Of a DNA stretch of 64,000 bases, positions 24,543-42,329 are shown in pieces. The stretch's first letter is position 1; each line of letters begins with the position of its first letter. Under the pieces are notes generated by a model. The model did no database searches, was not told the origin of the DNA, and was given only the letters and a program-made list of their open reading frames with translations. A program made the translations under genes and the position numbers. This DNA comes from a virus. The stretch covers positions 1-64,000 of the IMG/VR virus record IMGVR_UViG_3300037961_005106; one strand, given 5' to 3'.

Positions 24543-24652
24543 GAGAAGAAAGAAGTGACATAGTTAATAGCAAAAGCACAAGCTGCTCCCATAGCTGCAT
24601 ACGCAACTTCACGGAACAAATCTGTAGCTACACCAAGAACGAAACCAAACAT
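24539..24652 (-). CDS. 37-aa hydrophobic peptide
   Basis: MFGFVLGVATDLFREVAYAAMGAACAFAINYVTSFFS*; lies right after a motif-A hairpin; ATGA-coupled to the next gene. Confidence 0.55.
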   Translation of the reverse strand: MFGFVLGVATDLFREVAYAAMGAACAFAINYVTSFFS

Positions 24653-24698
24653 TGAATGAAATGATAAAGGGTTGACGCTAGGGCTTACGCAAAGCTGC

Positions 24699-25634
24699 CT
24701 AGTTTTTTTTATTGAAGAAAGGTTTAAGTTGAGTTAATGCTGGAGCAGGGAAAGGAATGAATTCGTTTTCAAGCATAGCTTCAAACAAAGACCAAGCATC
24801 GTGTTGGCTATACCTTGTATCTTTGCGATACAGCTTCCACTTATTAAGAGGAGCCATTTGGCCAGACGTTGTGTAGAGAACTTGGAACTGACCAAGCTCT
24901 TGTCCTTCCCCTGGAGGAGCATACGACCAAGCTGTTGCCTTCTGACTCATCGTGCCACGTGCTGAATCAAATAGAGCAGCCCGTTTAGAAAGGAGTTCTC
25001 GCCAACGATTGATCCAAGTCAAGTGTTTACATGTAGGCTCATAGCCAGGGATTTCGGCTTGGATTTCTTTTAGGTGTAACTTTTGTTGCAAGAAAGAACC
25101 ACAAGAACATTGAGGAGAATGATCTGGTTCAGTGGCAACTTCATCTGAATCATCAATACTTAAGGGAGGATTTGGATATAAGACACCATCAGGTGCAACC
25201 AAATAGCCAAAAGAATAATCAGGATTTTCTAAGAAAGCTTTCATGCCTTCTTCGTTTTGAATGTGATCAAGTTTATCTCCCCAACGTTGTTGCATAATTG
25301 ATTGAGGTAAACGATATGATCCTTGAAATTGATAGTTCCAACCTTTGAATAAGACATAACAGTTGTTACGCCAAAAGCTTGGCCCCTTTAAATCAGGCCC
25401 AAGATATGAAAAGAAGTCAGGACAACGTGAACGAAAATCTTTGAAAGAATCTTTTACTTTTTGTTTGTCATATTCTTTTTCGGTTCCATCATTGTAAACA
25501 ACAACCAAGTTGTTATCAACCATACAAATAGCAGAGATATCTGTATCATCAAAGTCATCAAAGGCTCTTCTAATATTTGAACGGGAATAAATAATAGATT
25601 GACCAGAATTAAGTTGTTCAATAGTTGAAGTCAT
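24699..25634 (-). CDS. SWIM zinc-finger protein
   Basis: CSCGSF...x(n)...CKHL SWIM signature. Confidence 0.7.
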   Translation of the reverse strand: MTSTIEQLNSGQSIIYSRSNIRRAFDDFDDTDISAICMVDNNLVVVYNDGTEKEYDKQKVKDSFKDFRSRCPDFFSYLGPDLKGPSFWRNNCYVLFKGWNYQFQGSYRLPQSIMQQRWGDKLDHIQNEEGMKAFLENPDYSFGYLVAPDGVLYPNPPLSIDDSDEVATEPDHSPQCSCGSFLQQKLHLKEIQAEIPGYEPTCKHLTWINRWRELLSKRAALFDSARGTMSQKATAWSYAPPGEGQELGQFQVLYTTSGQMAPLNKWKLYRKDTRYSQHDAWSLFEAMLENEFIPFPAPALTQLKPFFNKKN

Positions 25635-25665
25635 GGTTAGAATGAGTTAAATTAAATTAGATTAA

Positions 25666-25872
25666 ATGGCACTGAGCTTTGAATCAAGTCCAGAAGAAGA
25701 GTTCTGGAGTGTACGAATGAATCGTCACATTGAAGACTGTAGCTCAGTCAGTGAATTAAAGCAGATCGCTACGTTGCTTGTCAAGCTTGCAGCGACCCGC
25801 CAGTGCGTGATCAAAGGTCTAGTAAAAGAATCACTAGACCGTATGGAATCAGAATTTATTATCGGCTCCTAG
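25666..25872 (+). CDS. nblA: NblA-like phycobilisome degradation adaptor
   Basis: 68 aa; S-x-E-E-E-F...I.....ELK.....L........IKGLVK helix-loop-helix pattern of NblA. Confidence 0.6.
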   Translation: MALSFESSPEEEFWSVRMNRHIEDCSSVSELKQIATLLVKLAATRQCVIKGLVKESLDRMESEFIIGS

Positions 25873-26838
25873 ATCATCACGAGATGAACTAAGAACTTGA
25901 ACTTCTGTTACTCCAGCACGAGATTCAGGAAGAATGTTTACTCCTTCCTTAATCCCATACGCCCCATTAAGACGACTAGCATCTTGCTTGGCATGTTGGT
26001 TAATGTAGTCATAGTACATCTCTTGGAATTTCCAAGTCGATTCACGATCTTCATCAGGAATGGAAAGCTTATCGAGAGAAGATAAAGCTACTTCCTGATT
26101 CTGATATTCAGGAATGTCAAATGATTCAACAGCGCAAATTTCAACGTTGTTGTTACCACGCATATCACCAGCAAGAGTGGGGCAAAAGACAGTTGTTGCG
26201 TGAAACTTCTCATTGAAATTTAAAGGCACTTCAGAATCCATGGCACGAGAAAGACACTTTGACATTTCTTTCTCATACAGTTTGATCTTCTCAGATAAAT
26301 CTGTACCATTAAGACCTTTAAGCGTTAAGACCATAGGGATCTTATGCGCACGTTTATTTTCTTTGGTAAGAATGTAAACAAGGTATTTAGTACGTACTGC
26401 ATACTTACGCTTGTACATTTCATTCTTACTATTAGCAAGATCAGAAGCAGTTTTATCTGCATCCCAAAGTTCTTTAACGTCAGGATCGTTAAAGATTCCA
26501 ATTATCTGACGCATGCCAGATGTTTCTTCGATCATTAATGGTGAACGAAGGAGGATTTGGAGTCGTGGTGATTGGAGGTTGAGGCCGAGTTCTTTGCTGG
26601 TGTTTGGTGGCATGCCAAATGCATGCTCGTAGTCAAAGATAATGGAGCCTTTGTCAAAGTCACTGGGATCTGCAGTCCAACTGCAAGAGTCAAGATCTGT
26701 GTTGCGAATAAACCAACCACGTTTCTTTGATTTGTTGAGAGGTTGAATAGTAATTAAATTTTGGTATCCAGAAACAAATTTTTTGTCGCTGAATAAAGCA
26801 AACGAATCAATGTTGCGTTTAGCAAGAGCGCTTGTCAT
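25849..26838 (-). CDS. Conserved cyanobacterial/cyanophage protein (DUF5895-like; possibly recombination)
   Basis: PRLQIL.RSPL...RTKYLVYIL...N...H.IP..LTLKG; adjacent to SSB. Confidence 0.5.
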   Translation of the reverse strand: MTSALAKRNIDSFALFSDKKFVSGYQNLITIQPLNKSKKRGWFIRNTDLDSCSWTADPSDFDKGSIIFDYEHAFGMPPNTSKELGLNLQSPRLQILLRSPLMIEETSGMRQIIGIFNDPDVKELWDADKTASDLANSKNEMYKRKYAVRTKYLVYILTKENKRAHKIPMVLTLKGLNGTDLSEKIKLYEKEMSKCLSRAMDSEVPLNFNEKFHATTVFCPTLAGDMRGNNNVEICAVESFDIPEYQNQEVALSSLDKLSIPDEDRESTWKFQEMYYDYINQHAKQDASRLNGAYGIKEGVNILPESRAGVTEVQVLSSSRDDLGADNKF

Positions 26839-26914
26839 AGTGAATTCGTAGTGTGTTCGGTGTGTGAAATCTGGGCCTTACCTCTATAGAGTGCCCAGAT
26901 GTGTGTAGCTTAGC

Positions 26915-27778
26915 TCAGAATGGTTCCTTTGAGTCGTTGATGTTTAGATTGTTGTCGGGCAAAGGAGGTAAACCATTTGTGTTTGCTCCCCATGGCTCAG
27001 CAATTGCCATTGGTTCTTTAGGTTCCGCAATAGCTGCCTGATGAGGTGACTCAGGTGTTGTTGATTCTGCAGTGCGTCCACCCCATAAAGATTTAGGTGC
27101 AGAGTCATTAGCAATTGTTGTTGTTGATTTGATTGCGTTAGAAGTAACATCAGTCTTAGGTGCCAATGTCATTTGTTTCATTTGAATCTTTGTGTTGTAC
27201 CGTTGTTGTTTTGAATTGTGATCAAACCAACTATCAGTTACAAGCTGCCCCTGGATGGTAATACCAGTTCCTTTCTTGCAAAGATTAACCAAAAGCTCTG
27301 CCGGTTTAAAAGCATCATCAACTTTATTCATTGATGTGAAGTTAAACAAGTCAGCAGCCATTTTGCCCTTGGTAACAGTCATACTCATATTGGCAATCAT
27401 CAAACCACTGTCAGTTGTTTTGAATGTCATTGGATTAGTAACATCAGGATCTTTTGCAATCCGGCCTGTCAAGATAACTGAGTTATAAATAGGGAATGAA
27501 TCATCAACAACAGCAGGGTTACCACTGTGTAAAGAATGCTCACGTGCTTCTAAATCATGATGCAGTTTTGCACCATAGATAAACAAACAAGTTCCTGCTT
27601 TGATTAGTGAACGCCAGCGAGCCTGGTCCTGATAGATGTGATAGTACACCTCTGTTGGTGCTTTATTTGCACTAACAGGAGGCAGTTGTACTTTTACTTT
27701 CAAAGCAGTACGAGAGGAATCCAAATAGATTTCTTTCGGTTCTTCAGTCGCTTGAGCACAAACAAAAACTTGATTCAT
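26915..27778 (-). CDS. ssb: Single-stranded DNA-binding protein, apparently two tandem OB folds
   Basis: MNQVFV..A...P and NSVILTGRIAKDP...KKG..I.I.GQL..DSW; C-terminal EPF tail. Confidence 0.8.
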   Translation of the reverse strand: MNQVFVCAQATEEPKEIYLDSSRTALKVKVQLPPVSANKAPTEVYYHIYQDQARWRSLIKAGTCLFIYGAKLHHDLEAREHSLHSGNPAVVDDSFPIYNSVILTGRIAKDPDVTNPMTFKTTDSGLMIANMSMTVTKGKMAADLFNFTSMNKVDDAFKPAELLVNLCKKGTGITIQGQLVTDSWFDHNSKQQRYNTKIQMKQMTLAPKTDVTSNAIKSTTTIANDSAPKSLWGGRTAESTTPESPHQAAIAEPKEPMAIAEPWGANTNGLPPLPDNNLNINDSKEPF

Positions 27779-27833
27779 GATTTTAAAGTTGGATCAGAAA
27801 AGCTAGGACTTACATCGTAAGAATGCCTAGTAA

Positions 27834-29696
27834 TCAGTGTGTATCGTACCAGGTATAACCAGTCTTGGCATCACCTTCAATCTTGCATTGAAAGTTAAAT
27901 GCTTCACCAGCAGCAGGAAAAGCATTCAAAGCAAGACGAATAATTTCATTTTCAATGCCTGGTCTACAGCTCAATTGAATTTCGTCATGAATCATTCCGT
28001 GTTGATGCCAGTCTTGTCCATAGACTAAGCCAGCACTACTGAGATTCTTATGGATATTAATGACAACTTGTTTCATTAAAATTGCACCACAAGATTGCAA
28101 CAAAACATTTAAAGCTTTGAAATCAGAGCGACAATAAAGAGGACGCTTATCTAAACCAAGAAGATAACCACGACCAATTAAATTCTCAGCAAGTTTATTC
28201 TTTAGTTTTTGTAATGCTGGCACACCATTCATGAACGATTGGATAGCAGCTTTGCCTAATTGTTTAAGGGCATCAGGATCCTTTTCATTAGGATCCACGA
28301 TGCTACCTGCCTTAAGAAATCCAGCTCCATAAAGAACTGCATAAAGAAGTCGCTTGCTAATATCTCTAGTTTCAACACCAAACTTTTCTTGGTTATAAGT
28401 ATGGATGTCTACTGAATCATCAGTAACCATTTGTCCATACTCTCCATCATCCCAGAATGCTAAATACCCAGCAAGACAACGTAATTCCAAGGCTTTAGCA
28501 TCAGAACCAATAAGGATCCAATCGTCAGGAGCATGAAATAATGAACGGCATTCCTTTCCATATGGACTATAAGCTGCGGGAATTTGAGCAGTATTTGGGT
28601 TGCGGTGGCTACACCGGCCAGTAATACAACCATTAGTAACCACGTCGCCGTGAATATAACCATCGGGAGAGACAAGCTTGATCCAAGCGTTGTTGCCATC
28701 TTTAATTTGACCTAACCGTTTCTTAAGTAACATGTATTCTGCCAGAGGTTTAGCTTCTGGATATGGAAGTTTTTCTAAGACATCGTCATTTAATACAGGG
28801 TTACCCTTCTCAGTTCTTGTCTCAGGAATCCAACCGTATTTATTCTTTAAACGCTGAACAATTTGTTGACGTGATCCTGGATTAAACTTCTCTATTCTTT
28901 TCTTACAAAAGGGTACGTCTTTTACATAGCCACGGGAAGCATTGTTTACCTTGGGAGTAAACCATTCCTCATGTTCAATTGGTGGAAAAAGATTAACTAA
29001 TTCTGTTTCGAGTTTTGTTTTGAGATGCTCAAGTTCATCCACAAAAGCAAGAGCTGCATCAATATCAAAAGGAAAACCTGATCGAATTTGTCTCTCAATA
29101 CATGATGCAAAGGTGTGTTCAAGTTCGAGACAAGTTGTTGCGATTGTTTGCTTTTGGATGTGCTCAAGTAGTTTTGTTGTGACATTGACGTCTTGAATAC
29201 AGTAGGACAACATCTCTTCAGAAAAAGCCGAGAAATCTTTAAAGTCGATCTTGTAGTCGGATAACCTGTAACCCCAAGCTTTGAGTGAAGCTGACCCTTT
29301 GAGTCCACCAGGCACACGTGTGTATGAATTTGTATCTGACTCAAGTAACTTTTCTTTCGGCCAAATGAGTCGTGTGCAGATGAGTGTGTCGATGACATGC
29401 TGTGTGTTTAGTTTGAAGTTGGGAGCTAGCTTTTGTAAGACAGGAATGTCGTAGAAAATTATATTGTGTCCGATAAGAGCATCGGCGCTATTGAGAGAAT
29501 CAATAGCATCATTAATAGTATCAGGCCCGTAAGTAAAAGTTTGTTGTCGTGTGACATCGTAGATAACGATGCAGAAGATTTTAGTAACATCATCATAGAG
29601 TCCGTCAGTTTCTATATCGAATACATACCATTTATCATTTAAAGAATTTGGCTTCAGGCTGAACTGATAACTCTTTTGAAGCGAGGTTACTGTCAT
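27834..29696 (-). CDS. polA: DNA polymerase family A, T7-like with 3'-5' exonuclease (Tyr at the E. coli 762-equivalent position)
   Basis: FDIETDG, GHNIIFYD, YCIQDV; motif A DAKALELR, motif B RDISKRLLYAVLYG, motif C HDEIQ. Confidence 0.95.
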   Translation of the reverse strand: MTVTSLQKSYQFSLKPNSLNDKWYVFDIETDGLYDDVTKIFCIVIYDVTRQQTFTYGPDTINDAIDSLNSADALIGHNIIFYDIPVLQKLAPNFKLNTQHVIDTLICTRLIWPKEKLLESDTNSYTRVPGGLKGSASLKAWGYRLSDYKIDFKDFSAFSEEMLSYCIQDVNVTTKLLEHIQKQTIATTCLELEHTFASCIERQIRSGFPFDIDAALAFVDELEHLKTKLETELVNLFPPIEHEEWFTPKVNNASRGYVKDVPFCKKRIEKFNPGSRQQIVQRLKNKYGWIPETRTEKGNPVLNDDVLEKLPYPEAKPLAEYMLLKKRLGQIKDGNNAWIKLVSPDGYIHGDVVTNGCITGRCSHRNPNTAQIPAAYSPYGKECRSLFHAPDDWILIGSDAKALELRCLAGYLAFWDDGEYGQMVTDDSVDIHTYNQEKFGVETRDISKRLLYAVLYGAGFLKAGSIVDPNEKDPDALKQLGKAAIQSFMNGVPALQKLKNKLAENLIGRGYLLGLDKRPLYCRSDFKALNVLLQSCGAILMKQVVINIHKNLSSAGLVYGQDWHQHGMIHDEIQLSCRPGIENEIIRLALNAFPAAGEAFNFQCKIEGDAKTGYTWYDTH

Positions 29697-29919
29697 TTTT
29701 GTTAATCCAATTGAGTATATTCATAGCACCTGTCTTGGTTGGAGAACAAAATGCTTTTGAAATTTGAGAGTCTTTTGTTATTGGAATTAACTCAAAGACT
29801 TTGGCATCAACGTTGGGAGTGATTGCATGAGGTATCCCTTTCAAATATGTAGTAATTAAGTACGACACAAAAAGAATTGCAGGACACATAAATAATACGC
29901 ATCCTGCAAAAAAGTGCAA
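29635..29919 (-). CDS. Hypothetical protein with N-terminal TM segment
   Basis: ORF track. Confidence 0.5.
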   Translation of the reverse strand: MHFFAGCVLFMCPAILFVSYLITTYLKGIPHAITPNVDAKVFELIPITKDSQISKAFCSPTKTGAMNILNWINKNDSNLASKELSVQPEAKFFK

Positions 29920-29923
29920 CTAA

Positions 29924-30694
29924 TTATTTTGAATATCCTGTCCAGGTTCCCTCACGTTTGCGTGCATTTAATGCAGCTTGCGCAGCAGATCCCTTGCGTT
30001 GAACACCATGAACAAGTAGAGCAAAGGGTTTATCACCAAAGCAATGACTATCATCATGGTCAATCTCTAAACCAAGATCAGCAGCTTCTTGTTCTGTATA
30101 AACTACATGAGCGATGCGCTTAAAGACATGCCCGTATCTGGAAAGGAGAGGATCGAGATTACCCCCAACTGAAGCAGTGAGAAACAGGTTAGAAGGAATG
30201 TCATCTTGATTGTTGAGCCAGTAGCTAAGTTGTTTTGTGTAGGCATAGAACTTAATTTCAGGGTGTTGACGAGCAACTTCGAGCCAAGCTTTGAAATAGA
30301 TTTCAGACCAGAAATCACCTGACTCATGGATGCGACACAAGTTATATTTAACTTTGTTTTTATTATGCTGCCATATGCCATATGCAATTGTATCTTCTAA
30401 TGCACCTTGAGGATTTTGTACGCCTTCGCCATAAAGAGTTTCTTTAATGGCATCCCAATTGTGCCAACGTGCATCGCGGCATGGTTTGCTACGTGCTTCA
30501 GACATTGCAGCAAAACATCTGTACTCCTCACCAGTAGCATGAGCTGATTGTGGCAAGTCACGAATCGTACCTGTAGTTCTGTCTGCAAAAGTTTTGCAAT
30601 GACCAGCATTAGGACAGGTGTAACCCGCTGGTAAAGAAAAGATTAGACGTTTACCAAGCTTGGCATTGCCTGTAGAGAACTTTAGGATGTGCAT
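29924..30694 (-). CDS. Gene product 88-family (radical-SAM-like) protein; start at 30694
   Basis: GNAKL...FSLPAGYTCP.A..C...CFA, RIHESGDF, FYAYTK. The ORF-track extension runs through a motif-A hairpin. Confidence 0.75.
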   Translation of the reverse strand: MHILKFSTGNAKLGKRLIFSLPAGYTCPNAGHCKTFADRTTGTIRDLPQSAHATGEEYRCFAAMSEARSKPCRDARWHNWDAIKETLYGEGVQNPQGALEDTIAYGIWQHNKNKVKYNLCRIHESGDFWSEIYFKAWLEVARQHPEIKFYAYTKQLSYWLNNQDDIPSNLFLTASVGGNLDPLLSRYGHVFKRIAHVVYTEQEAADLGLEIDHDDSHCFGDKPFALLVHGVQRKGSAAQAALNARKREGTWTGYSK

Positions 30695-30758
30695 GAGATG
30701 AAATGAAGTGGATTGAATGGGACTTACAACACACATTACTGTGTGTATGCCCATGAGT

Positions 30759-31184
30759 TTAACTACAATACTCTGTATTTTGTTCTCTTTGGTATTGAGT
30801 CATAATTCTTTTTGCTTTCCAAACAGCAGCATCATTAATAAATTTATCAAGGGTGCAACCAATTAAAGCAGCAGCTTCTCTCATATCTTTTAACTCTTGT
30901 GCTTCAAACTTTACAGTAACTTTAGTCTTTATTTCTTTAGCTTTTACCCAATCAATATTCTCTTTTACCCAATCATCAACTTCTTTTTTAACGTAATAGT
31001 TTGAGCCTTTGGAACCAGGGTTAACAGGCGAAGGAAAGATACCTTCTTTTGTCTTACGAATCAAAGTGAATCGTGACATTAGTGTCAAGTCAAGTACTTG
31101 TTGCGTTGTGTAAAAATTCGATCGCTCTTTCCCCCTGGGTATGGTTGAAGAAACAGCAGCGTGAAATTGATTTTCTGGAAGCAT
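30759..31184 (-). CDS. AlpA/excisionase-type HTH protein with C-terminal RHH-like segment
   Basis: TQQVLDLTLMSRFTLIRKTKEGIFPSP...EVDDW; then VTVKF...REAAA..G.TLDKFI.DAA. Confidence 0.7.
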   Translation of the reverse strand: MLPENQFHAAVSSTIPRGKERSNFYTTQQVLDLTLMSRFTLIRKTKEGIFPSPVNPGSKGSNYYVKKEVDDWVKENIDWVKAKEIKTKVTVKFEAQELKDMREAAALIGCTLDKFINDAAVWKAKRIMTQYQREQNTEYCS

Positions 31185-31212
31185 GATGGATTGATTTGGT
31201 CTAGGATAAAGG

Positions 31213-31265
31213 AACGTTCACCTCAGTGCGAGGCGCAATTCACTAGGCAAGGAACGGGGCCTAGG
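31213..31265 (+). ncRNA. Glutamine-II riboswitch (Downstream-peptide RNA)
   Basis: P1 CGUUC/GAACG, P2 CCUC/GAGG, CGCA junction, GGAACGGGG, pseudoknot CUAGG(31243-47)/CCUAG(31260-64); upstream of a YRG peptide. Confidence 0.85.
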
Positions 31266-31283
31266 CTTTAGCGGAGAACTCTC

Positions 31284-31427
31284 ATGCAACTCACCTACCG
31301 TGGGGTTAAGTACCAGGCACAGACTGGTTTGATGGCTCATCTTCTCAAAAAACATGAGGAAGAGTTACGTGCAAAAAAAGAATTAGCACGTGACAAAGAG
31401 TCCATGAAAGCAACCTCAGTCTTTTAA
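31284..31427 (+). CDS. DUF4278 'YRG' peptide (IF17/GifB-related), 47 aa
   Basis: MQLTYRGVKYQAQTGLMAHLLKKHEEELRAKKELARDKESMKATSVF*; GGAG SD. Not in the ORF track. Confidence 0.8.
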   Translation: MQLTYRGVKYQAQTGLMAHLLKKHEEELRAKKELARDKESMKATSVF

Positions 31428-31621
31428 GACCAAGGCCAGCTTAACTCAACGTCAGCTTGCCAGACATCTGGATCAATCTGACGTTCACTAACATATTGAT
31501 TGAATAGGCGTTTCATTTCTTCTAATGAGATGCCTATTTCTTTTGCTTTAACGGCTACATTAGTTTGCCCACGGTAGATAAGATCAAGAGCATCTTCCAA
31601 AGAGGTTACAGTCTTGTGCAT
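31424..31621 (-). CDS. Small HTH-like hypothetical protein
   Basis: NVAVKAKEIGISLEEMK. Confidence 0.55.
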   Translation of the reverse strand: MHKTVTSLEDALDLIYRGQTNVAVKAKEIGISLEEMKRLFNQYVSERQIDPDVWQADVELSWPWS

Positions 31622-32078
31622 CAGGAGTCATGTACTCAGGAATATCAAAATCACAACAGTCATTCTCTTGGTGATAATGCTTACAGTTTAAACATATAAT
31701 TGCTTTCTTGTTTAAATATTTTCCAGCATCTGCTTCAGGAAGTTCAATCGTTGTAATGCGATAATCACAAGCCTGGCATTGCTTTTGTCGTCGTCGATAA
31801 CCACTACCATTTAATCTGCTTTCAATAACTTTTAGAAAACGCCTCCCACAATTGGGACACTTTTCCATGATGGATGCTCTTGCTGCTTTGAGTTGATCTG
31901 CTGTTGGCATTACAAAAGGTTTACGAGAAAAAATACCTGAGCATTGTCGTGAACAAAAAATTTTAAGACGCCCACGTTTTATGTTTGCTTTATGCAACCA
32001 CTTTGAACGTTTAAAAAGTTTTCCACAACACTCACATTTCAGTTGAAGCTCACTTTTATTTAACAGAGTGTGTTCCAC
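31584..32078 (-). CDS. Multi-zinc-ribbon protein with NrdR-like N-domain
   Basis: CECCG..F...FCSRQC; CPNCG....VIESR....RRRQKQCQACDYRITTIE; CLNC.H...C...C. Confidence 0.7.
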   Translation of the reverse strand: MEHTLLNKSELQLKCECCGKLFKRSKWLHKANIKRGRLKIFCSRQCSGIFSRKPFVMPTADQLKAARASIMEKCPNCGRRFLKVIESRLNGSGYRRRQKQCQACDYRITTIELPEADAGKYLNKKAIICLNCKHYHQENDCCDFDIPEYMTPDAQDCNLFGRCS

Positions 32079-32734
32079 ATTGCCTCCGAAATAATTGGAA
32101 ACTGCTGCATAAAAATTGTTTTACATTTTTGAGCAATCTCTTTGTGTTCTTCTTGCGTACCGTTGGCGGTGCGAAGATCAATGTAATGAAGCCAAGAACG
32201 AAGAGTACCATTCATGTACATTTTTGTAGGGGCATTAGGCAAGACAGAACGAGCACATTCTTTTGCAATGCCGTCACTTAACATCTCTTGGTATAGATGT
32301 TCAGCATCTTCAAAGAGAACGCCAATGCGACGGTAATACTCAGAGACTTTAGGTTTACCTAAACGTTCTTCTAAATCATCAAATGATTTTTGACGATTCT
32401 TCAGATCTTGTGAGCGTAAATGTGGAATCAATGGACGACCAATTTCATTTGTATTGGCATAGCGTTGTGAAAATTCCTGGAATGAAAATGATCTGTGCCT
32501 TAATATTTGAGGACTAATTGTCCGTGTAGTGTGTACTTCTAAGCACATGTTGGCCATTTCAAAAGGAGACCAATGGCCATGTTTAATTAAATAACGTAAG
32601 AGCTTTGGACCTGTGTCCATGTTGTCTTCGTTTCTTGGAGCTGAGACTCTTGCAGTACGTACGATCATACGCTCTGCTTCATCAGTACGCCAAACTAATG
32701 AGACGGTGTGAGGTGAGAACATAGCGGATGTCAA
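32060..32734 (-). CDS. thyX: FAD-dependent thymidylate synthase
   Basis: HGHWSPFE, RHRSFSFQEFSQRY, KECARSVLP, LRSWLHYIDLR. Confidence 0.95.
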   Translation of the reverse strand: MTSAMFSPHTVSLVWRTDEAERMIVRTARVSAPRNEDNMDTGPKLLRYLIKHGHWSPFEMANMCLEVHTTRTISPQILRHRSFSFQEFSQRYANTNEIGRPLIPHLRSQDLKNRQKSFDDLEERLGKPKVSEYYRRIGVLFEDAEHLYQEMLSDGIAKECARSVLPNAPTKMYMNGTLRSWLHYIDLRTANGTQEEHKEIAQKCKTIFMQQFPIISEAMWNTLC

Positions 32735-33018
32735 TTGATTTTCTCTCGTTCATTCTTAACAACTGCGTCGATTGCTGCCTGATTAGGAGCTAAAGCAATA
32801 CGCATTGTCATATGCCATTCAGAAGAGGATGAACCATCCCATTGAATGAGGAGCCAAGGCATAAGAGTGCCCCTTGCATTTGATTTGTATTGAACTTCGT
32901 GGACAGTACCTAGCTTTGTTCTTGGAGGAAGAGCGCCTTTAATGTTGCTCATCATTGATCTAGGTTTGTGGATGACTCGGTCACCAACATTGAATTGAAC
33001 TTGTTTGCGTTTAGTCAT
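32731..33018 (-). CDS. Small SH3/KOW-like hypothetical protein
   Basis: FNVGDRV...GTV......IQWDG. Confidence 0.6.
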   Translation of the reverse strand: MTKRKQVQFNVGDRVIHKPRSMMSNIKGALPPRTKLGTVHEVQYKSNARGTLMPWLLIQWDGSSSSEWHMTMRIALAPNQAAIDAVVKNEREKIN

Positions 33019-33034
33019 TGAGAATTAGTATGCA

Positions 33035-33066
33035 GAGAAATACCCGGCTGCAGCAACAACCGGGTA
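33035..33066 (-). terminator. Hairpin, possible terminator downstream of the tRNA
   Basis: UACCCGG...CCGGGUA followed by UUUCUCU. Confidence 0.45.
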
Positions 33067-33174
33067 AGTAGTACACGCCCCTACCGAAGGATAGATCAGG
33101 TGCTAAGGCTGATCTGGACGTATCTTAGTGAGTGCAATTAGGTGGGTCAAGTTGAAAAGTATTAAGTTAATTGT

Positions 33175-33262
33175 TGGTAGGAGTGGCGAGACTTGAACTC
33201 GCACGGCCATAGTGGCCCACAGATTTTAAGTCTGATGTGTCTACCGATTCCACCACACTCCC
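33175..33262 (-). tRNA. tRNA-Leu (anticodon UAA), encoded CCA
   Basis: GGGAGTG acceptor, TGGTGGAATCGGTAGACAC D-arm, CAGAC-TTAAAA-TCTG anticodon arm, long variable arm, GTTCAAG T-loop, ACCA end. Confidence 0.95.
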
Positions 33263-33316
33263 AGGCTAGGACTTACACCAAAACTTTGTATTGGATGCCT
33301 AGACGGTTACCTTTGT

Positions 33317-36300
33317 TTACTCATCGAGTTGCCAGTCAAGATCTAATTCTTCTAAGAATTGAATCTTGTCATAGTCAGTACCATCAATAGGTGGTGGTAG
33401 ATCATCATGTTCTAGTGAAAAGCATGCACTACAAATCCCTGGGCCATACTCTGCAGGATGTGCAAGCTCTGGTGGATTGTAACAAGGAGCAAGTGTTTGC
33501 ACCATGTTATCAATTTGGGCAGTAGCAATCCAGTGAGTAGTTCCATTAGAGTCTGTTTGATCTAAATCAATGTCGTAAACAAGAAGAATAAGTTTCATTT
33601 GCGCACCGTAAGATGTTTAACCATGGTGTAACCCATAGATTTGATGTCAGTAGCTTTAGAAGCAAAGATTCCATTAGGCCCGTACTCCTCAAAGAGTTCG
33701 GGCCATGTGGTTAAGATCTTTTGCTGGTTACGTAAATCAGATCTACGGTAGAGAGCAGCAAGTCCTTTGACAAAACCGCCACCATAGGTTTCCATTCGAT
33801 CAAGAGTTTGATCAAGGTGTTGAGTAGTAATCATGAATTGAATTGAATGAACAGTGAGAGTCTAGGACTTACATGTTGGGGATACAATGCCTAGTAATAA
33901 GTATTTACTTAAAGGTATATAAGTATTCTTGGTGGCCCTCCGGGGGTGCAGGGGGCTTTATTGTTCCTTAATGTTTGCCAAGTATCTAGCATATGCTCCC
34001 CTCTTTGGGGCACGATACTTTCTATTCTGTGGCTGTGGCTTCTTAGTTACATAGACACGCTGTCCGTTTCGCATGTAGTAAAGACCTCCGCGTTTACCTT
34101 CGATGAGCTCAACGTTAGTAGGCAATGCGCTTACATGATTCAACGTCATTCGTTGTCAGACCACATGTCAGGTTTAGAGTTGTGCTCCGGCAGATCAGGA
34201 GTCCTGAAGTCTGGGAGCTCAGTCGATACTACATTACGGAAGCTGATTCCGGTACCGGGGAGCCCTAAAGATCCCCGGATGCCGTGTTCGCTAAGGTTTG
34301 CTGTGACTTGGAAGGGACCAACCTTGATTGTCTTGGAGTAGGACTTAACACCACGTTCAGTGATGTTGATGCCTGCAATAGTTTTGTCAAAGTTGATCAG
34401 TGATTTCTTTCGTGCCATGGTTTGTGTGTTGGAGTGAAGTGACAAAGAAGTAACTAGCTGTATCTCTATGATGTTTGATATGTACGTCAGTCTTGGAGCA
34501 TCTGATTCTTAACTCAGTGCCATCCGGTAAGATAACAAAGAGTGTTTGCTCAGGTAGTGCATCAATTGTTGGCATAGAATACAATGAATGATAAGGTTTG
34601 CTTATGTCCTGGATGTTATTTCCAGTACATTTGACGGATGTAATACCAAAGTACTTCTTCAGTTAAGCTGCACCCTGGGTTCTCCGCCAATAACTTAACT
34701 GCTTCGTCAAGTTCTTTTTGTGAACCATTGGCATAAGTAACGGACCATGCAACATCTTCCATGCGTTCCCATAAAGCTGTAGCTTCTGGGGTTAACTTGG
34801 AATGACGAGGTAGATCACGTCCTTTTGCTTCATAATGTTCACCATAAATGTCTTTAACTGTGTCCATAAATTAAGTTAAGTTGACATGAAAAAGCCTGGG
34901 ACTTACGCATGATAGCTGCCCAGAAGTGAGTTAGAGTCTGTTGTTAGTATCTAGCAATAGTGAGGCCGCTCGGTGGGATAGTGTGTTGCATACCCTGAGC
35001 CGAGGGTGGCCTGAGTTGCGGAAAGATTTCGACTGTCACAGATGCTTCCTTGGTTGAATAGGTCGTAATGTTTCGTGAGTTCGAGGCAACGTCTGATGCA
35101 TTGCTTTTTGGAGAAGATGCAGTGGGTGGCGATGGCTTGACCAACTTCGTACCACCATCCTCCTTCTTCTGGCCCACCGTACGCTTGGTAGACTTCGTGG
35201 ATTTTGATTGTCTTTGGGGCTTCACCACTAAAGCTTTCTGCCCAGTTGTATTGGTCAATCCAATATCTTGTTGCGCCTGTACGGGGGTAACGTTTGAGGT
35301 AGGCGTTTGCGAGGGCCATAGAAGAAGTGATAGAAGAGCAAGAATGTGATCGATGATGTGGTATTCAGTTGTGTTAGAACTTCCCATCAGGATGCTGTGA
35401 GATAAAGTTTTCGTAGTCAGGATCAATGCCTTCGGGAGGATCCATTTCCTCTCGCATTGCTTGCTCCTGTTGATAGGCGATGTCAGCAAGGATGTCAATC
35501 TCATCCTGCTTAATTTGTTTAGTGAGGCGGTCGAGTTCAGACATGGTTGACATGATGTTAAATTGAATGGGTATTAAAGACTGGGACTTACGTTGTTGAG
35601 GTACTCCAGGTATTGGCCTGATGTAATTCGACATACTGCCCAGTGCATTTTACTGAGGTGGACTACATGCATCAGCGTAGAGAAAACTACCGCTCCAGTC
35701 AGCCTTATGTAACGCAGCCGCATAAGAACTGTCGTTTAATAAGTTGTAACGTACTTGACGTATTGGAGAACAATAGGAGGCAGGCTTGTAAACATTCCCT
35801 TTGCTATCAATGAAGCACCATGTTTCAGTAGTAGGACCACCCAACATGTTCTTCCATGAGATTGTTAGCTCAAGTCTGATGTACTTTCTACCTTGGTATT
35901 GACGGAATGTAAGAGATTTCTCACGTTCCTTAACACCTTTTCGATAGTACTTACTGATGGCAGACTCAGTAAGGTTGTTGATGCGTTCTTGAAGGATTGA
36001 TGTTGTCATGATTAACAGGCAGGTCCATAGTATTTCTCCAGCCCCCTGGGACAGACCGGTGACTCATAGTTGAGTGCATAAGTGCCTGCACCTATCAGTG
36101 CTAGGCATGTAATGACACCAACAATGATGGGCGCTGTGAGAGGGGGACGGGAGTATGAATCGAGTGTGACGTACTTGTTCTTGCCAAGACGTACTGTGTG
36201 AATTGCCATGTCAAGTCTGCGTATTGAGTTTGAAGGTGTCAAGATGTTTAGTAATGAAACCAGAATCCCAGATAGTAGGTAAGCATTGCTCACTTACTGT

Positions 36301-36474
36301 TTCTTGGATGCCATCGACAATGGTCATGACACGACACCAATTAGTGTTCTTGTCAGGATGATGTGCGATAACGCAGGCAGTATAGTCATCTCCTTCTGAG
36401 AAGACCATCCACTTAAGTTCCTGGGCTTGTTTGATTGCCCATTCCCTAAGCTCACTAGTCGTTGGTGAAGTCAT
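33317..36474 (-). CDS. Cluster of small early genes (33317-33598, 33595-33834, 33958-34149, 34616-34867, 34951-35319, ~35374-35555, 36012-36210, 36211-36474)
   Basis: Tightly packed co-directional ORFs; no recognisable function. Confidence 0.6.
34146..34418 (-). CDS. DUF4236-like protein
   Basis: SKTIKVGPFQVTANLSEHGIRGSLGLPGTGISFR. Confidence 0.6.
   Translation of the reverse strand: MARKKSLINFDKTIAGINITERGVKSYSKTIKVGPFQVTANLSEHGIRGSLGLPGTGISFRNVVSTELPDFRTPDLPEHNSKPDMWSDNE
35650..36009 (-). CDS. Conserved cyanophage early protein
   Basis: GRKYI...CFIDSKGNVYKPASY..P...RYNL...ADWSGSFLY. Confidence 0.6.
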   Translation of the reverse strand: MTTSILQERINNLTESAISKYYRKGVKEREKSLTFRQYQGRKYIRLELTISWKNMLGGPTTETWCFIDSKGNVYKPASYCSPIRQVRYNLLNDSSYAAALHKADWSGSFLYADACSPPQ

Positions 36475-36650
36475 TTGGAATTGAATGAGGTGTACCCTGG
36501 GACTTATACACTGATGTGATGCCCAGGGTGTAGTTATAGTTACAATTTAGTTGTAAAGAGATGCATACAATTACTACAGTTGAATTAATAGAATGGCAGT
36601 AGCAACAGTTGTATGCATGCTCGGGATGAGTGCGTTAGGTGCTTGGTTAT

Positions 36651-37828
36651 TTACACCGCGTACTCGTATGTGAACTGACGCTCTAGTTGATGCCAAGCAT
36701 TACGACAAGCGTCATAGATCTCCTTGCGATTCTTATACACAATCACTGCTCCTTCCCAGGTAAGCTGAGTTAGCAGAATGATTAATGCAATCGCATGGAT
36801 AATTAACCACCGTAGTGGTTTATGTAGATGTCTACGGTAGAACTTACCTACCTGGTAGCCAGCATTGTATGTGTGACGAACGAGGTTCGCCATGAAGTTG
36901 AGGCAGAACAGAATAGCTGTGATGCTAAACAGTTCGCCGCCGATAGCGTAAAGACGTACGGCAGCAGTGATGAAGCTGTCAACATGAGACAGCAGATGAA
37001 GAGTAGTCATGAGTTTGAATTGAATAAAGGATTGTGCAGGAGTGAGTCCTGCAGAAAACCCCCGAAGGGGCTTAGTGCAGAAGTCATTTAGACATAAGAC
37101 TTTCTAGGTATTCACGTTCAAGGCAAATACCGTAGTTGTAGTAGTCTTTCATCTCTTCCCATAGATCTTTAACCCTGGTAGGCATCTCCATCAATGTACG
37201 AACATCGATGTCAATCCATTCATAGTTACCATCGAAGTTTGGCGTTGCAACGATGCCCCACTTTTGGAAGTGAAGCTGTGTTGATTCACCACCGTACCAA
37301 GCGATACGATAGATACGTTTGTCAGCATCGACAGGACGATCAGGTTGATAGATAAGAAGATCACGTTTGATAGACGGCCAGGTGGATGGGTCGTCAGTGT
37401 ATTCAGTCATTGGTTTGACTTAAGTTGAGTTGAACACAGGATGTAGAGTCCTGCAGAGAAGGGCCGAAGCCCCTCAGTGCAGAAGTCAGGTTACTTCCTT
37501 CTACCTTGATAGATTTTGAAAGCAAGGAAAGCACATGCAGCACCAACTGGTAGGCCGACTAAAGCAGCCATACCAATAATGCCAGCACTTGTTCCATAAG
37601 ATACAAGATCATCGGTAGATTTAGAGAGTTTGGTCATTGACCTAGATAGCGAATGTGCATACAAGCTTTAGCATCACCTACCCACGATGTTAACGTGACT
37701 ATGCGATGGTAATCAGGTTGAGCTCTGCAAGTCTCTATTGCACGTTGGTTCAGATGCTTCTGACCAGCAACAGATAGAAGACCTCCTAAACCTATGCCTA
37801 GAATTACAGCAAGGTACGACTTAGCCAT
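36651..37828 (-). CDS. Early genes 36651-37010 (membrane), 37084-37410, 37491-37637 (48-aa membrane), 37634-37828 (membrane)
   Basis: ORF track plus manual translation; three carry hydrophobic helices. Confidence 0.6.
37035..37488 (-). repeat. Structured RNA motif B, two copies (37035-37086, 37435-37488)
   Basis: UGACUUCUGCACU-[7-bp stem, cUUCGg]-UCUGCAGGACUC..UCCUG; inner stem covaries. Confidence 0.7.
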
Positions 37829-37846: not shown

Positions 37847-37873
37847 AGAAAAAAGGGGACTTTACAGCCCCCT
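37847..37873 (-). terminator. Intrinsic terminator after the first four early genes
   Basis: AGGGGGC-UGUAAA-GUCCCCU followed by UUUUU on the - strand. Confidence 0.7.
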
Positions 37874-38246: not shown

Positions 38247-38260
38247 GAGTTGCGTTGAGT

Positions 38261-38338
38261 TGTGTGGTGCCCATCTCCACTGAGGGCAATAACTGGACCA
38301 GGGTTTGCACCTGGTCACCCGCTTTAACGGATCAGCTA
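38261..38338 (-). ncRNA. Structured RNA motif C, copy 3 (tRNA-elbow-like junction + pseudoknot)
   Basis: UAGCUG A UCCG UUAAAG CGGG U GACCAGG UGCAAAC CCUGGUC CAGUUA U UGCCC UCA GUGG AGAU GGGCA CCAC. Confidence 0.8.
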
Positions 38339-38565
38339 AGCAGCTTGATTGCATACTTGGCAATCTCTGCTGCATGTTCCCTGGTTAGTACCTGGGAGTG
38401 TCCGTCCTCCATCAGATTTCTAATCTGTTGGAAGACAATCTCGCCAGACTCTTCACGAGTAGGAACGTGAGTTTCCTCACGAAGGCGAGTGGGTAACCCC
38501 ATCTCTTGTGCTGCCATCGCATCAGGCGATGTAGCGTAAAGAGCGGAGTTGGTGTAGTTGGTCAC
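38332..38565 (-). CDS. Early hypothetical protein (GTG start)
   Basis: CAGGAG SD then GTG ACC AAC. Confidence 0.6.
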   Translation of the reverse strand: MTNYTNSALYATSPDAMAAQEMGLPTRLREETHVPTREESGEIVFQQIRNLMEDGHSQVLTREHAAEIAKYAIKLLS

Positions 38566-38580
38566 AGGTATTCTCCTGTG

Positions 38581-38659
38581 TGTGCAGTGCCTATCTCTGC
38601 TGGAGGCAATAACTGTCAGGGGCATTGAACCCCTGATGCCAGCCTTTACTGGTCAGCTA
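38581..38659 (-). ncRNA. Structured RNA motif C, copy 2
   Basis: UAGCUG A CCAG UAAAGG CUGG CA UCAGGGG UUCAAUG CCCCUGA CAGUUA U UGCCU CCA GCAG AGAU AGGCA CUGC. Confidence 0.8.
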
Positions 38660-38837
38660 AGGCAGCTAACTCTGCACGAGTTGGCAGTCCGGCTTCAATG
38701 TCAATTAAATCCTGTTCGCATTCAATGACAGTGTCACCCCCGTAGACGTACGGAGGCTGACCATCTTTCTCAGCCATCTCATTGAGAGTGGTTGGAAAGG
38801 TAAGGTCATAACCGGGAACCTTGTTGTTGGTGCTCAC
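38646..38837 (-). CDS. Early hypothetical acidic protein (GTG start)
   Basis: CAGGAG SD then GTG AGC ACC. Confidence 0.6.
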   Translation of the reverse strand: MSTNNKVPGYDLTFPTTLNEMAEKDGQPPYVYGGDTVIECEQDLIDIEAGLPTRAELAALADQ

Positions 38838-38850
38838 AGGTAACTCCTGC

Positions 38851-38928
38851 GTGTGCGGTACCCATCTCCGCTGTGGGTAAGAAGTGCCAGGGGGATTGCA
38901 CCCCTGGTCCCGCTTTAACGGATCACTT
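38851..38928 (-). ncRNA. Structured RNA motif C, copy 1
   Basis: AAGUG A UCCG UUAAAG CGGG A CCAGGGG UGCAAUC CCCCUGG CACUU CU UACCC ACA GCGG AGAU GGGUA CCGC. Confidence 0.8.
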
Positions 38929-39090
38929 GTTAAGCAGTTGCTGGTACCAACGGCGAGCCATAGCAACACTGCAACGTGCTTGTTGATCTCTTCCTTGCTG
39001 TCCTTTACGGACAAGCTTGGATACAAGTGCTTGATCTCCTTTGATCTCAAAGAAGTAAACAGCTTGTTTAGTCTCAAGTGCGTAAGACAT
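38923..39090 (-). CDS. First early gene, 55 aa (MSYALETKQAVYFFE...)
   Basis: Manual translation; its TGA stop lies within the motif-C copy. Confidence 0.6.
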   Translation of the reverse strand: MSYALETKQAVYFFEIKGDQALVSKLVRKGQQGRDQQARCSVAMARRWYQQLLNK

Positions 39091-39228
39091 GATGTTGAAG
39101 TGAATGGAACGTTGCTACGTTTAACGTCCAGCTTGACGGTTGTTGATCGCTACAATCTTTCTTGGACTTCAGCGCTAGAGAGCGCGAAATAACGAGTAAA
39201 AGGCGGCAAACAACAGATGGAAAGACTG

Positions 39229-39965: not shown

Positions 39966-42329
39966 ATGGCTCTTTCTCCTGCTGATTTTGCCGCATATAG
40001 CCGTGCAACCGGTACTTCTTACCCTGAATCACCGGAAGAACGGGCTCAATTAGTTCCTGAAGTCCGTGCATTCCGTCAAAGGCAACTTCAACCGCCTGAA
40101 AAACAGGAATCAAACTCTCTTGCCTTAGGTCTTGGCATTGGATTAGGTCTTGCAGGGGTTGGTGGAGGTTTAATGACCCTGCGTGGACGGGCTAAGAAAG
40201 GAATTAAAGCAGATACTGCTGGTAAAAGTAGTGTAAAAATGACTGATCTTAGTGATCAGCAAGTACCAAAGTCTAAAACGCAAGTATATAGAGATGTAGC
40301 AGCTAAAGCTGAAGAAGATCTACCGCAAGTAACTCGTCCTTCTGGTGGTGTAGATGAATCAATGTTAGTTACTGATCCTGAAACGGGAGAAGTATATCGT
40401 CGTGGTGGAGATGCTTCGATTCGATCAAAACAAGCACAAGAAAATTTAAGTGATCGTGTTGATGAGCTTTTAGCAGAAGTCAGTGTTGGTGAAGCAGGTC
40501 AAATGCTTGCCGGACGTGAAGTAGCAGCAGAAGCTGGTCAAATGATGGGGACTGAATCAAGTCGTCAGTCAAACGTTGTCCGTCGCTTAGAAAAGGAAGA
40601 AGAAAGACAGGCAAAAAATATATTATCCGAATTGGCCCAAGAAACTCTGAGTCAAGCAGACTCCGAAAAAGCTGCTCGTATTGCACGTAATCAAGCAAAA
40701 GATAGAGCGCAAGTTTCTGACTATATGTCAGATGTACTTGAATCAGTTATTGATGAAAATTATCAGTACCCAGAAGAAGTTCCAAGTAACTTAATGGGTT
40801 TAGCACGTCGTGCCAAGCAAAATAAACTTACAGATAGCGATTTTAGTTCTATTCAGCAGTGGGCTCAGACTGAGTTTAAGAATGATCCAACTGTCTTAGG
40901 TGAAATAAATGAAAATTTATCTTCTCTTCCTAAAACATCAACCCTTACAGAAACGTATGAAGCTTTTGGTGAACCTGCAGCACAAGTACAAAACATTGAA
41001 GCTCTAAATACTGCTTCTGATCAAGCTGCTGCACCTATTGAACGTGCGGTACAAAGAAATGAAGATATTGATGTTAGTGCTGCTCAGTCTTTCTTGAATC
41101 AACAACGTGATAAGTTGCAAGCTAAAGGTTTATCTCCTACACGTGTTGAACGTGTTCTTGCTTCTAACCCTGAATTAATTGAAGCAGCAGAGTTATATGC
41201 AAGTACAGGTGATGAAGCAGTGTTATCTCGTTTTTCAGAACAACCTGCATCTCCTGTAACAGTTAAACCTAAGTCTGTACTGTCTTTAGATTCAGACGAA
41301 CTAGCAACAGGTTCTTTGTTTAAATCAGGAACTTTTGGTGAATTTGTAGATGACCTTGAAGGTAAAGACGTAGATTTAACAAATCGTATTTCTTCTCTTG
41401 GTGCAGAGCAGCAACAGCTTGCCGGACGCCGTAAACAATTAGAAGAAGATTCATTAATGATTAAATCTGCAATGGATCGTGAGCCTATTGATAAAGATGA
41501 TTACAGCCGTATGTATGGTCAGATGCAATATGAAATGCAGAATATGCCTGATCCCGCAAGTTTAAATGTAGACATTGGTGATGCAATGGCAGAACGAGAT
41601 CATGTACGCGCTCAATTAAAAGGTTTAAAAGAAGTAGGTGCTCAACAATTTTTAATTGATCAAACAGAAGGATCACGTGCATTTTATGAAGTTAATCCAG
41701 CCACTAATGAAATTATTCCTGAAACACTGGAAGTACGTGGTGGACGTAAATCAATCGAACAGAAAAAAGGTGGAGGTGGTCGGAATATAGCGGAGTATTC
41801 CGCTGGTGATCGTATAGCAGAAGAAGTGCGCAGTATTCAACAAGGAGGTCGTTTACGTGACTATGACGACACAGGTGCTGCTAAGCAAGTTTTTGAAGGA
41901 GATCGCACACAAACTGGTGGTCGCCTTGGTTTATACGGTTCAGAACGTACCGAGCGCAAAGGAGAACGTGCTACTGCAGGTCAACGTCCTACGCAAGTAA
42001 CAGAAGACGAATTAATTAATCAAGCATTAATGGATTCAAGAGCTGATGAACTAGGAATTCCCACTCCACCAGATCGCGATTTAGTTTTTGTTGATGAACA
42101 AAAATATCAAAAGCCTGACAGACAGAACCGTTTGTTAGATTCTGAAATTCTGCGTCGGACTGCTATTGAAGGTCGTAATCCACAATCTTCATTAGCAGGA
42201 AGAGCACAACGGCAAAGTCGTCCTAGAATTGCAGCATTACGTCAGGAAGCAACACGCAGAAAAGCTGCTGGTGAGCCTTTAATGTCTAAAGCAGAAGCTT
42301 TTAATTTCCTCAGTAACTACGCTAAATAA
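39966..42329 (+). CDS. Large helical protein, putative internal virion/ejection protein
   Basis: 787 aa; N-terminal Gly-rich hydrophobic segment; first gene of the late arm. Confidence 0.55.
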   Translation: MALSPADFAAYSRATGTSYPESPEERAQLVPEVRAFRQRQLQPPEKQESNSLALGLGIGLGLAGVGGGLMTLRGRAKKGIKADTAGKSSVKMTDLSDQQVPKSKTQVYRDVAAKAEEDLPQVTRPSGGVDESMLVTDPETGEVYRRGGDASIRSKQAQENLSDRVDELLAEVSVGEAGQMLAGREVAAEAGQMMGTESSRQSNVVRRLEKEEERQAKNILSELAQETLSQADSEKAARIARNQAKDRAQVSDYMSDVLESVIDENYQYPEEVPSNLMGLARRAKQNKLTDSDFSSIQQWAQTEFKNDPTVLGEINENLSSLPKTSTLTETYEAFGEPAAQVQNIEALNTASDQAAAPIERAVQRNEDIDVSAAQSFLNQQRDKLQAKGLSPTRVERVLASNPELIEAAELYASTGDEAVLSRFSEQPASPVTVKPKSVLSLDSDELATGSLFKSGTFGEFVDDLEGKDVDLTNRISSLGAEQQQLAGRRKQLEEDSLMIKSAMDREPIDKDDYSRMYGQMQYEMQNMPDPASLNVDIGDAMAERDHVRAQLKGLKEVGAQQFLIDQTEGSRAFYEVNPATNEIIPETLEVRGGRKSIEQKKGGGGRNIAEYSAGDRIAEEVRSIQQGGRLRDYDDTGAAKQVFEGDRTQTGGRLGLYGSERTERKGERATAGQRPTQVTEDELINQALMDSRADELGIPTPPDRDLVFVDEQKYQKPDRQNRLLDSEILRRTAIEGRNPQSSLAGRAQRQSRPRIAALRQEATRRKAAGEPLMSKAEAFNFLSNYAK

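Follow-up and report, generated by a model that had tools for sequence, protein, structure and literature searches.

Nine small hairpins punctuate the early region of a cyanophage genome, and as a plausible if tentative reading we propose that they act as cis-acting RNA boundary modules, which would fix and protect RNA ends in polycistronic cyanophage transcripts. The DNA analysed (hereafter the window) comprises bases 1-64000 of the IMG/VR record IMGVR_UViG_3300037961_005106, a complete virus record of 79,234 bp with terminal repeats. The family-A DNA polymerase of this phage shares 66% identity with its counterpart in the closest isolate, Synechococcus phage S-EIVl, and its DNA is present in marine metagenomes; judged by sequence, the phage is a marine cyanophage and a relative of S-EIVl. 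All nine hairpins have the layout CYRGG-CA-(variable stem-loop)-R-UAAG-N-CCYRG, lie between positions 24678 and 36529, and are intergenic and on the - strand. We favour the boundary reading because the hairpins share a setting: a co-directional junction, after a coding region and before an RNA that needs a defined start.

The window was searched with the pattern GGCA-N(n)-TAAGNCC plus at least three further outer pairs. All nine copies described in the initial annotation, which was made from the window alone, were located, and their number is far above that in shuffled sequences: with at least five outer pairs required, nine matches compare with a mean of 0.36 and a maximum of 3 in 300 dinucleotide shuffles. 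On the + strand of the window the pattern has no match. A tenth match (34340-34374), which lies within an open reading frame (ORF) and has almost no outer stem, was taken as chance. The copies and the tRNA next to one of them are as follows, with distances in nucleotides (nt) and protein lengths in amino acids (aa).

36494-36529, - strand: copy 1, with a 7-bp outer stem and the variant AUAAGU (31.4 bits; -15.6 kcal/mol, z -3.3), 19-22 nt upstream of the ATG at 36474 of an 87-aa gene.
35580-35644, - strand: copy 2, with an apical domain of 46 nt; the ATG at 35552 of a 59-aa acidic protein is 27 nt downstream.
34895-34924, - strand: copy 3 (41.4 bits), followed by a U5 run, with 28 nt to the ATG at 34867 of an 83-aa gene.
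33862-33894, - strand: copy 4; the ATG at 33834 of a 79-aa gene is 27 nt downstream.
33266-33302, - strand: copy 5, with 3 nt between the end of the hairpin and tRNA-Leu.
33175-33262, - strand: tRNA-Leu (UAA), immediately downstream of copy 5.
30717-30754, - strand: copy 6, with an AUGGG/CCCAU stem and a GUAA apical loop, 22 nt from the probable start of the gp88-like gene at 30694.
27803-27830, - strand: copy 7 (43.2 bits), 3 nt past the polA stop codon, with the SSB start at 27778 24 nt downstream.
26869-26900, - strand: copy 8; the DUF5895 gene start at 26838 is 30-32 nt downstream.
24678-24702, - strand: copy 9, the smallest, overlapping the stop codon of a 311-aa gene, with 25 nt to the ATG at 24651 of a 37-aa ORF.

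The copies lie -4 to 124 nt from the upstream stop codon. When the outer stem is counted as 5 bp, a start codon follows 22-32 nt downstream, except for copy 5, which precedes tRNA-Leu. The leaders between hairpin and start codon are G-poor and lack a Shine-Dalgarno (SD) sequence. The longest ORF of the gp88-like gene begins at the ATG at 30754, inside the outer stem of copy 6, and the gene probably starts at the in-frame ATG at 30694 instead. The apical part (8-46 nt) differs in all nine copies. Several copies fold weakly (-4.3 to -7.6 kcal/mol), and the smallest have 5+1 outer and 2-3 inner pairs, that is, 8-9 bp.

The element is conserved beyond this phage. A polA-based search yielded 23 related viral contigs, and every one of them that spans enough of the early region carries the motif on the gene strand. 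Whole-record searches of the complete relatives found 4-6 copies each, on a single strand and clustered in the early arm; S-EIVl carries two copies (KJ410740, 41439-41475 and 40729-40784), and the copy number among relatives ranges from 0 to 10. The covariation of the outer stem that had been read from the window (CUAGG/CCUAG, CUGGG/CCCAG and AUGGG/CCCAU) proved real there and in a set of 56 distinct sequences, in which 90% of the cells are paired and 67 cells are changed on both sides. This level was reached in none of 500 shuffles, and no slid register came close either. A pattern scan of viral contigs enlarged the set to about 260 distinct copies (at least 250). Their outer stem is mainly CUGGG/CCCAG, with CUUGG/CCAAG joining CUAGG/CCUAG and AUGGG/CCCAU as covarying forms. 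The conserved halves are separated by 7-68 nt. The conserved loop, together with covariation, holds in related phages, and the apical part varies as freely as had been suggested from the window, where one copy does have the GUAA loop noted there.

The internal loop was originally described as CA opposite RUAAGN. Its conservation stands, but its geometry is better drawn differently. Position 7 is A in 90% of the copies and position 18 is G in 92% and A in the rest; the 7/18 pair is purine-purine (A.G, A.A or G.G) in 90% and not Watson-Crick. The inner helix often begins with U.U, the first inner pair (8/-9) being U.U in 58% of the copies and Watson-Crick otherwise. In four relatives (L007, L008, L013 and L020) the copy next to tRNA-Leu reads GGUA...UAAAUCC, and the orthologous copy in two others (L014 and L018) reads GGCA...UAAGUCC with the same apical stem. 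Because of this compensatory double change from C6-G22 to U6-A22, we take C6 to pair with G22, and N23 would therefore be bulged and the loop reduced to A7 opposite R18-U19-A20-A21. The C6-G22 pair is also part of the minimum free energy structure predicted by RNAfold for two window copies. Comparison of the sequences thus argues for an outer helix of at least 5 bp, one bulged base, a C-G pair, an A/R-U-A-A loop, an inner helix and a free apical stem-loop.

That the sense-strand RNA is the acting form had been proposed from the single GUAA loop, and the enlarged set bears this out. Among 235 unique copies, sense folds contain 184 G-U pairs and antisense folds 99. Apical tetraloops comprise 27 GNRA and 2 UNCG loops in the sense orientation and a single antisense equivalent, with about 3 of each expected by chance. 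Copies in phages similar to Synechococcus phage S-CBWM1 have the apical loops UUCG, GCAA and the like. Since G-U pairs and GNRA/UNCG loops favour the sense strand, selection appears to act on that strand, as for RNA. These sequence data favour a hairpin that acts as a sense-strand RNA structure, unlike the template-strand hairpin promoters of phage N4.

Neither Rfam nor the literature offered a match. At the gathering threshold the only Rfam matches in the window are the tRNA and a Glutamine-II riboswitch, and the hairpins gave no sub-threshold match at E up to 5, so that the known element against which the initial annotation had wished to check them was not found. The UAA/GAN internal-loop motif differs from the present loop: here the strand opposite UAA reads C-A-N with an invariant C, and the G is on the UAA strand. 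No published description was found in literature on the motif, on cyanophage intergenic stem-loops or on S-EIVl.

Outside the S-EIVl relatives, the motif is also carried by two unrelated lineages of cyanophages and by a single integrase-bearing island. No protein common to the motif-bearing unrelated lineages was found in the fetched stretches. The sole convincing copy in a cellular genome (L270, 1501-1529, - strand; a Cyanobiaceae genome) lies 7 nt after a tyrosine-integrase gene and is therefore placed within an integrated element. In 302 cyanobacterial genomes (151 mixed and 151 Cyanobiaceae) there was no other convincing copy under strict filters that left few candidates to be scored. Another 121 matches in bacterial genomes were dismissed as chance, since inner pairing is found in 8% of them vs 81% in viral contigs; the half-site GGTAAGTCC also encodes the Gly-Lys-Ser of Walker-A loops, which gives rise to such chance matches (L043, L090 and others). 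A BLAST search of isolates with the minimal hairpin returned no match, and S-CBWM1 and S-TIM5 have no significant copy. The complement of the motif, GGGACTTAC, is not enriched in three Cyanobiaceae genomes, host stable RNAs being considered.

What follows the hairpin varies, with at least four settings on record. In the S-EIVl-like phages the leaders have 6.6% G and many UCAAY repeats, which agrees with the SD-less, G-poor leaders first seen in the window. A possible pairing of the UAAGU bulge with leader ACUUA (24 observed vs 11 expected) was far below the UCAAY repeats and was dropped. Twenty-one unique copies lie 1-6 nt upstream of a tRNA, 20 of them tRNA-Leu (UAA) and one tRNA-Asn, and of the 33 unique tRNA-Leu genes about 28 have either the motif itself or the U-A variant of it; the arrangement in the window, with the 3-nt gap reported from the start, is thus a recurrent one. 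In the S-CBWM1-like phages (about 20 loci; capsid protein 67% identical to that of S-CBWM1) a single copy lies about 10 nt past a stop codon and about 65 nt upstream of the major capsid gene, whose SD (GGAG) is of the ordinary kind. In GC-rich phages with lambda-type terminase and portal the hairpin comes after a 196-aa gene, and GGYNN repeats start a few nt after it with a strong 5-nt period (up to 14 of 16 in phase). These tracts, which are followed by structured tails in L158, L146, L172, L185, L197, L250 and L263, fit the published description of vrRNA/VIPR guide RNAs (preprint 10.64898/2026.04.26.720920). The 196-aa protein belongs to no Pfam family and could be the Vipr protein. The occurrence before tRNAs and, in other phages, before non-coding GGYNN-repeat RNA upholds the earlier argument that the role of the hairpin is not purely translational. 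Every case checked was co-directional, and no convergent or divergent context that would separate 3' from 5' roles was found.

Signals of transcription are largely absent around the hairpins. A T-run of at least four within 10 nt after the stem was found in 23 of 263 unique copies (9%). The claim that the hairpins are not canonical terminators therefore stands, 91% of the copies having no U-run; the absence of U-tails holds for most window copies but not for 34895 and 27803, 2 of the 9, which are followed by runs of U4-U5. A terminator scan of the window picked none of the nine. A profile of 56 flanks revealed no conserved -10/-35 upstream of the hairpins, the weak A signals there being stop codons, and a promoter scan gave fewer promoter-like sites than shuffles did. 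Three metatranscriptome runs from samples containing the DNA of this phage yielded no usable coverage of the region.

The orthologous SSB, gp88-like, DUF5895 and p79 genes show that the hairpin can be exchanged: in relatives it is replaced by a coremin-like knot, with similar distances to the AUG. In the knot, which contains GACGUUAAAC, a four-base stem is followed by a loop, by the complement of the stem and by WUAAAC. Ahead of SSB the hairpin is present in 7 unique orthologues and the knot in 16; the respective numbers are 8 and 24 for the gp88-like gene, 6 and 3 for p79, and 4 and 5 for DUF5895. Before tRNAs and GGYNN repeats there is only the hairpin, and the knot was never seen. The sequence GACGUUAAAC is part of the published coremin Xrn1-resistant motif, coremin being GUCCGAAGACGUUAAACUAC (PMC10520033). 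In the window itself a block of - strand genes, extending from about 39.1 kb to 8.5 kb, includes small early genes as well as ThyX, the gp88-like gene, polA, SSB, the DUF5895 gene and a primase-helicase. The window contains one such knot and a terminator:

39110-39135, - strand: coremin-like knot with GACGUUAAAC, about 29 nt upstream of the first early gene (ATG at 39090).
37854-37873, - strand: intrinsic-terminator hairpin GGGGG-CUGUAAAGU-CCCC followed by U6, with a loop like that of the motif minus the apical stem; not a member of the family.

Two long hairpins (37044-37086 and 37446-37488, - strand; 81% alike, with UUCG-type loops) were also observed, each directly after a stop codon and before an SD-less leader, as were, in the stretch between the first early genes (38250-38930, - strand), three structured elements about 80 nt long, each with a 7-bp stem and a 7-nt T-loop-like loop. 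This UUCG hairpin pair and the tRNA-like elements are other modules ahead of the next early genes. By its placement in these sequences the hairpin is thus one of several swappable modules ahead of SD-less leaders. The specific regulon that had been envisaged for the hairpin-bearing genes finds no support, because the same orthologous genes carry the coremin-like knot in relatives and other early genes have other modules at the same distance.

How might a boundary module work? In our proposal the downstream RNA would first be cut or trimmed, a tRNA by RNase P, a GGYNN guide RNA by its own maturation and a G-poor leader by RNase E or RNase J. The hairpin would then halt exoribonucleases, either capping the new 3' end of the upstream message or remaining 5'-terminal on the downstream message, or both, and each RNA would thereby gain a defined, protected end. 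Before mRNA leaders the hairpin may serve as a 5'-terminal stabiliser, like the knot that it replaces. The conserved loop could give the RNA a compact fold of a special kind, or offer a conserved protein of the host a place to dock; we assume a special fold or a bound protein because several copies are weak while the loop is near-invariant. No protein is common to the unrelated lineages in the DNA fetched, which makes a phage protein less likely than a host factor or a self-contained fold. Accounts of the hairpin as a recognition site for an RNA-binding protein or nuclease are therefore kept in part: processing or stabilisation appears to fit the sequence data best, but phage-encoded binding proteins are unsupported. 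The proposed KOW-like, DUF4236-like and SWIM candidates found no backing, and none of the small early proteins of the phage has a recognisable RNA-binding or nuclease domain. It is tempting to speculate further, although we regard this as rather doubtful, that the hairpin represents a new compact RNA end-fixing fold of bacteria and phages, about 28 nt long, which alone or with one conserved host protein stops cyanobacterial exoribonucleases. It would then belong to an interchangeable punctuation code, made up of the hairpin, the coremin-like knot, tRNA-like elements and hammerheads, with which cyanophages would divide a single long transcript into mRNAs, tRNAs and VIPR guide RNAs, each stabilised on its own.

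Several considerations weigh against the boundary reading. Both cleavage and end protection at the hairpin are deduced rather than observed, and by their predicted energies several copies seem too weak to be passive barriers. We know of no means by which a simple looped hairpin could block a 5'-3' exonuclease, unlike the knot. Recognition of the loop by a host protein would sit awkwardly with the lack of copies in the host genomes searched. The loci from the pattern search were chosen for the motif, so that the counts of contexts are biased. Finally, the tight distance to the start codon could equally fit a translational role.

Two other explanations share much of this evidence. In one of them, which we consider unlikely, the hairpin is an active processing signal: a host or phage sequence-specific endoribonuclease, in the manner of Cas6-type enzymes at CRISPR repeats or of RNase III in the T7 early region, would recognise the internal loop and cleave the RNA at the hairpin or immediately 3' of it. 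The tRNA precursor, the guide RNA and the mRNA leaders would all owe their 5' ends to this cleavage. A near-invariant loop across unrelated phages would be expected from such a site, RNAs in need of defined 5' ends do start 1-8 nt past the stem, and the weak helices point to recognition by a protein. However, the lineages have no nuclease gene in common as far as their DNA was fetched, the host genomes searched yielded no copies of the site, the phage genome has no RNase III gene (the host has one), and the smallest copies, with their 8-9 bp, are too short for RNase III. A dedicated endonuclease site fits the same contexts as a boundary module and differs from it only in who cuts. The other explanation, which strikes us as quite improbable, makes the hairpin a helper of translation initiation that bounds the unstructured, SD-less leader at 22-33 nt from the AUG, as an insulator or as a standby or recruitment platform for the ribosome. 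It would account for the tight hairpin-to-AUG distance, for the G-poor, UCAAY-rich leaders and for the other module types at the same distance in this phage, but not for a motif 1-6 nt upstream of tRNAs and before non-coding GGYNN repeats, nor for one about 65 nt upstream of an S-CBWM1-like capsid gene with a normal GGAG SD.

The remaining explanations place the function at the level of DNA or transcription. A pause, factor-dependent termination or put-like antitermination hairpin acting on host RNA polymerase while the nascent transcript folds is decidedly improbable. U4-U7 runs do follow some copies, giving those in L224 and L239 and the window copies at 34895 and 27803 the look of true terminators, and the terminator at 37854-37873 has a motif-like loop; that cyanobacteria, to our knowledge, lack Rho may also be counted towards this explanation. 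Yet the large majority of copies have no U-run, expression would be blocked by nine terminators in a single co-directional block with no promoters between them, no conserved promoter is seen upstream of the hairpins, and known put/nut sites occur once per operon rather than at every junction. A promoter, that is, a DNA signal for a phage-type RNA polymerase, is suggested by a likeness of sequence: the 5' half and GUAA loop of minimal copies, TGGGCAUCCGUAAGG, match the Syn5 promoter plus its first two transcribed bases, TGGGCACCCGTAAGG, agreeing strikingly with the published sequence in 14 of 15 letters (15 of 16 with the preceding base), +1 and +2 included; the Syn5 +1 is the G after GTAA. Short, fixed distances to genes, tRNAs and small RNAs would agree with this. 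Nevertheless, we hold it to be highly improbable: a T7-like RNA polymerase (PF00940) is absent from the complete 79-kb genome and no polymerase domain is recognised among its large ORFs (the largest has 1093 aa), a duplex promoter could not tolerate halves 7-68 nt apart, the GUAA loop behind the likeness is present in only about 17 of 235 copies, and the structure is selected on the sense strand rather than on the template strand as in N4, whose hairpin promoters go with a giant virion RNA polymerase. No likelier is a REP-like selfish or mobile hairpin that spreads as single-stranded DNA, with the RNA effect as a by-product. The patchy occurrence over unrelated cyanophage lineages and one island, and a copy number among relatives from 0 to 10, speak for it. 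Against it, the phage genome has no Y1 transposase (Y1_Tnp), the apical parts all differ within the genome and so indicate no recent copying, orthologous copies persist with compensatory changes, RNA-type tetraloops are enriched, and the position relative to downstream RNAs is fixed.

Some features of the neighbourhood deserve mention in their own right. The rightward arm opens with a 787-aa ORF (39966-42329, + strand), whose available model is poor; like the remaining large ORFs, it has no relative in Pfam, PHROG or Atlas. The Glutamine-II riboswitch aptamer (31212-31265, + strand; 43.4 bits, above the gathering score) is on the strand opposite the early genes and has a 47-aa ORF (31284-31427, + strand) downstream. 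Right after the tRNA, in the region 33041-33150 (- strand), there is a sigma-70-like promoter (TTGACC-17-TAAGAT), and about 60 nt downstream of it, before a 95-aa gene, a strong terminator-like hairpin with a U-run; together they may represent a small RNA or an attenuating leader.

Several known systems resemble the element in part. One is coremin (xrRNA-C) of plant RNA viruses, likewise a module of about 28 nt, whose knot look-alike stands at the same place before the same orthologous genes; the hairpin itself has neither the coremin sequence nor a pseudoknot, and none of the coremin/xrRNA-C features (hp1 with a YGAD-type loop, the spacer GUUAAACUAC, a second hairpin) is found in it. The early RNase III sites of T7, and those in SP82/SPO1 early mRNA, are also conserved hairpins with an asymmetric loop between early genes, tens of nt before starts. 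In T7 the hairpin, once processed, remains attached to the upstream RNA and stabilises it at the 3' end. The T7 sites have about 20 bp, whereas the smallest copies here have 8-9 bp and do not reach two helical turns. Chloroplast mRNA 3' inverted repeats and E. coli REP are non-terminating structures that block 3'-5' exonucleases and stabilise the upstream RNA. They resemble the present element as intercistronic or 3' hairpins, but act via helix stability or bound proteins and have no such conserved loop; moreover, REP is host-chromosomal and RAYT-linked, whereas our motif is phage-only and comes without a Y1 transposase. In MALAT1 and MEN-beta a stabilising 3' structure abuts a tRNA-like RNA that is cut by RNase P. 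By analogy with this, a structure a few nt from a tRNA 5' end would be left by RNase P on the upstream 3' end, although MALAT1 forms a eukaryotic triple helix and our element is an internal-loop hairpin. Short repeated motifs that flank small early genes, or stand at a set distance from start codons, are also known from T4-type phages (PeSL cassettes) and from cluster K mycobacteriophages (start-associated sequences, SAS); a sigma-70 promoter is part of PeSL, and SAS are linear sequences, whereas here there is no conserved promoter and the RNA fold covaries. As for the Syn5 promoter, it is a duplex of set length and depends on a T7-like polymerase, of which this phage has none; most copies bear no likeness to it.

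Intercistronic stabiliser or processing hairpins are thus an already known kind of element. What is new is that the A/RUAA loop is fixed, that the motif is spread over unrelated cyanophages and precedes tRNAs and VIPR-like repeats, and that a coremin-like knot can take its place. Little is understood of how phages express their genes in cyanobacteria, hosts that lack Rho and often SD. The module described here recurs hundreds of times in uncultured cyanophages, at junctions before tRNAs, guide-RNA arrays and mRNA leaders, and its swapping with a look-alike of a plant-virus exonuclease-resistant knot points to a modular setting of RNA ends and half-lives. Since the isolate S-EIVl has two copies, the idea is directly testable. 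If true, it would provide a handle on a host RNase or protein exploited by cyanophages, and synthetic biology in cyanobacteria would gain a portable part for use as an insulator or stabiliser.

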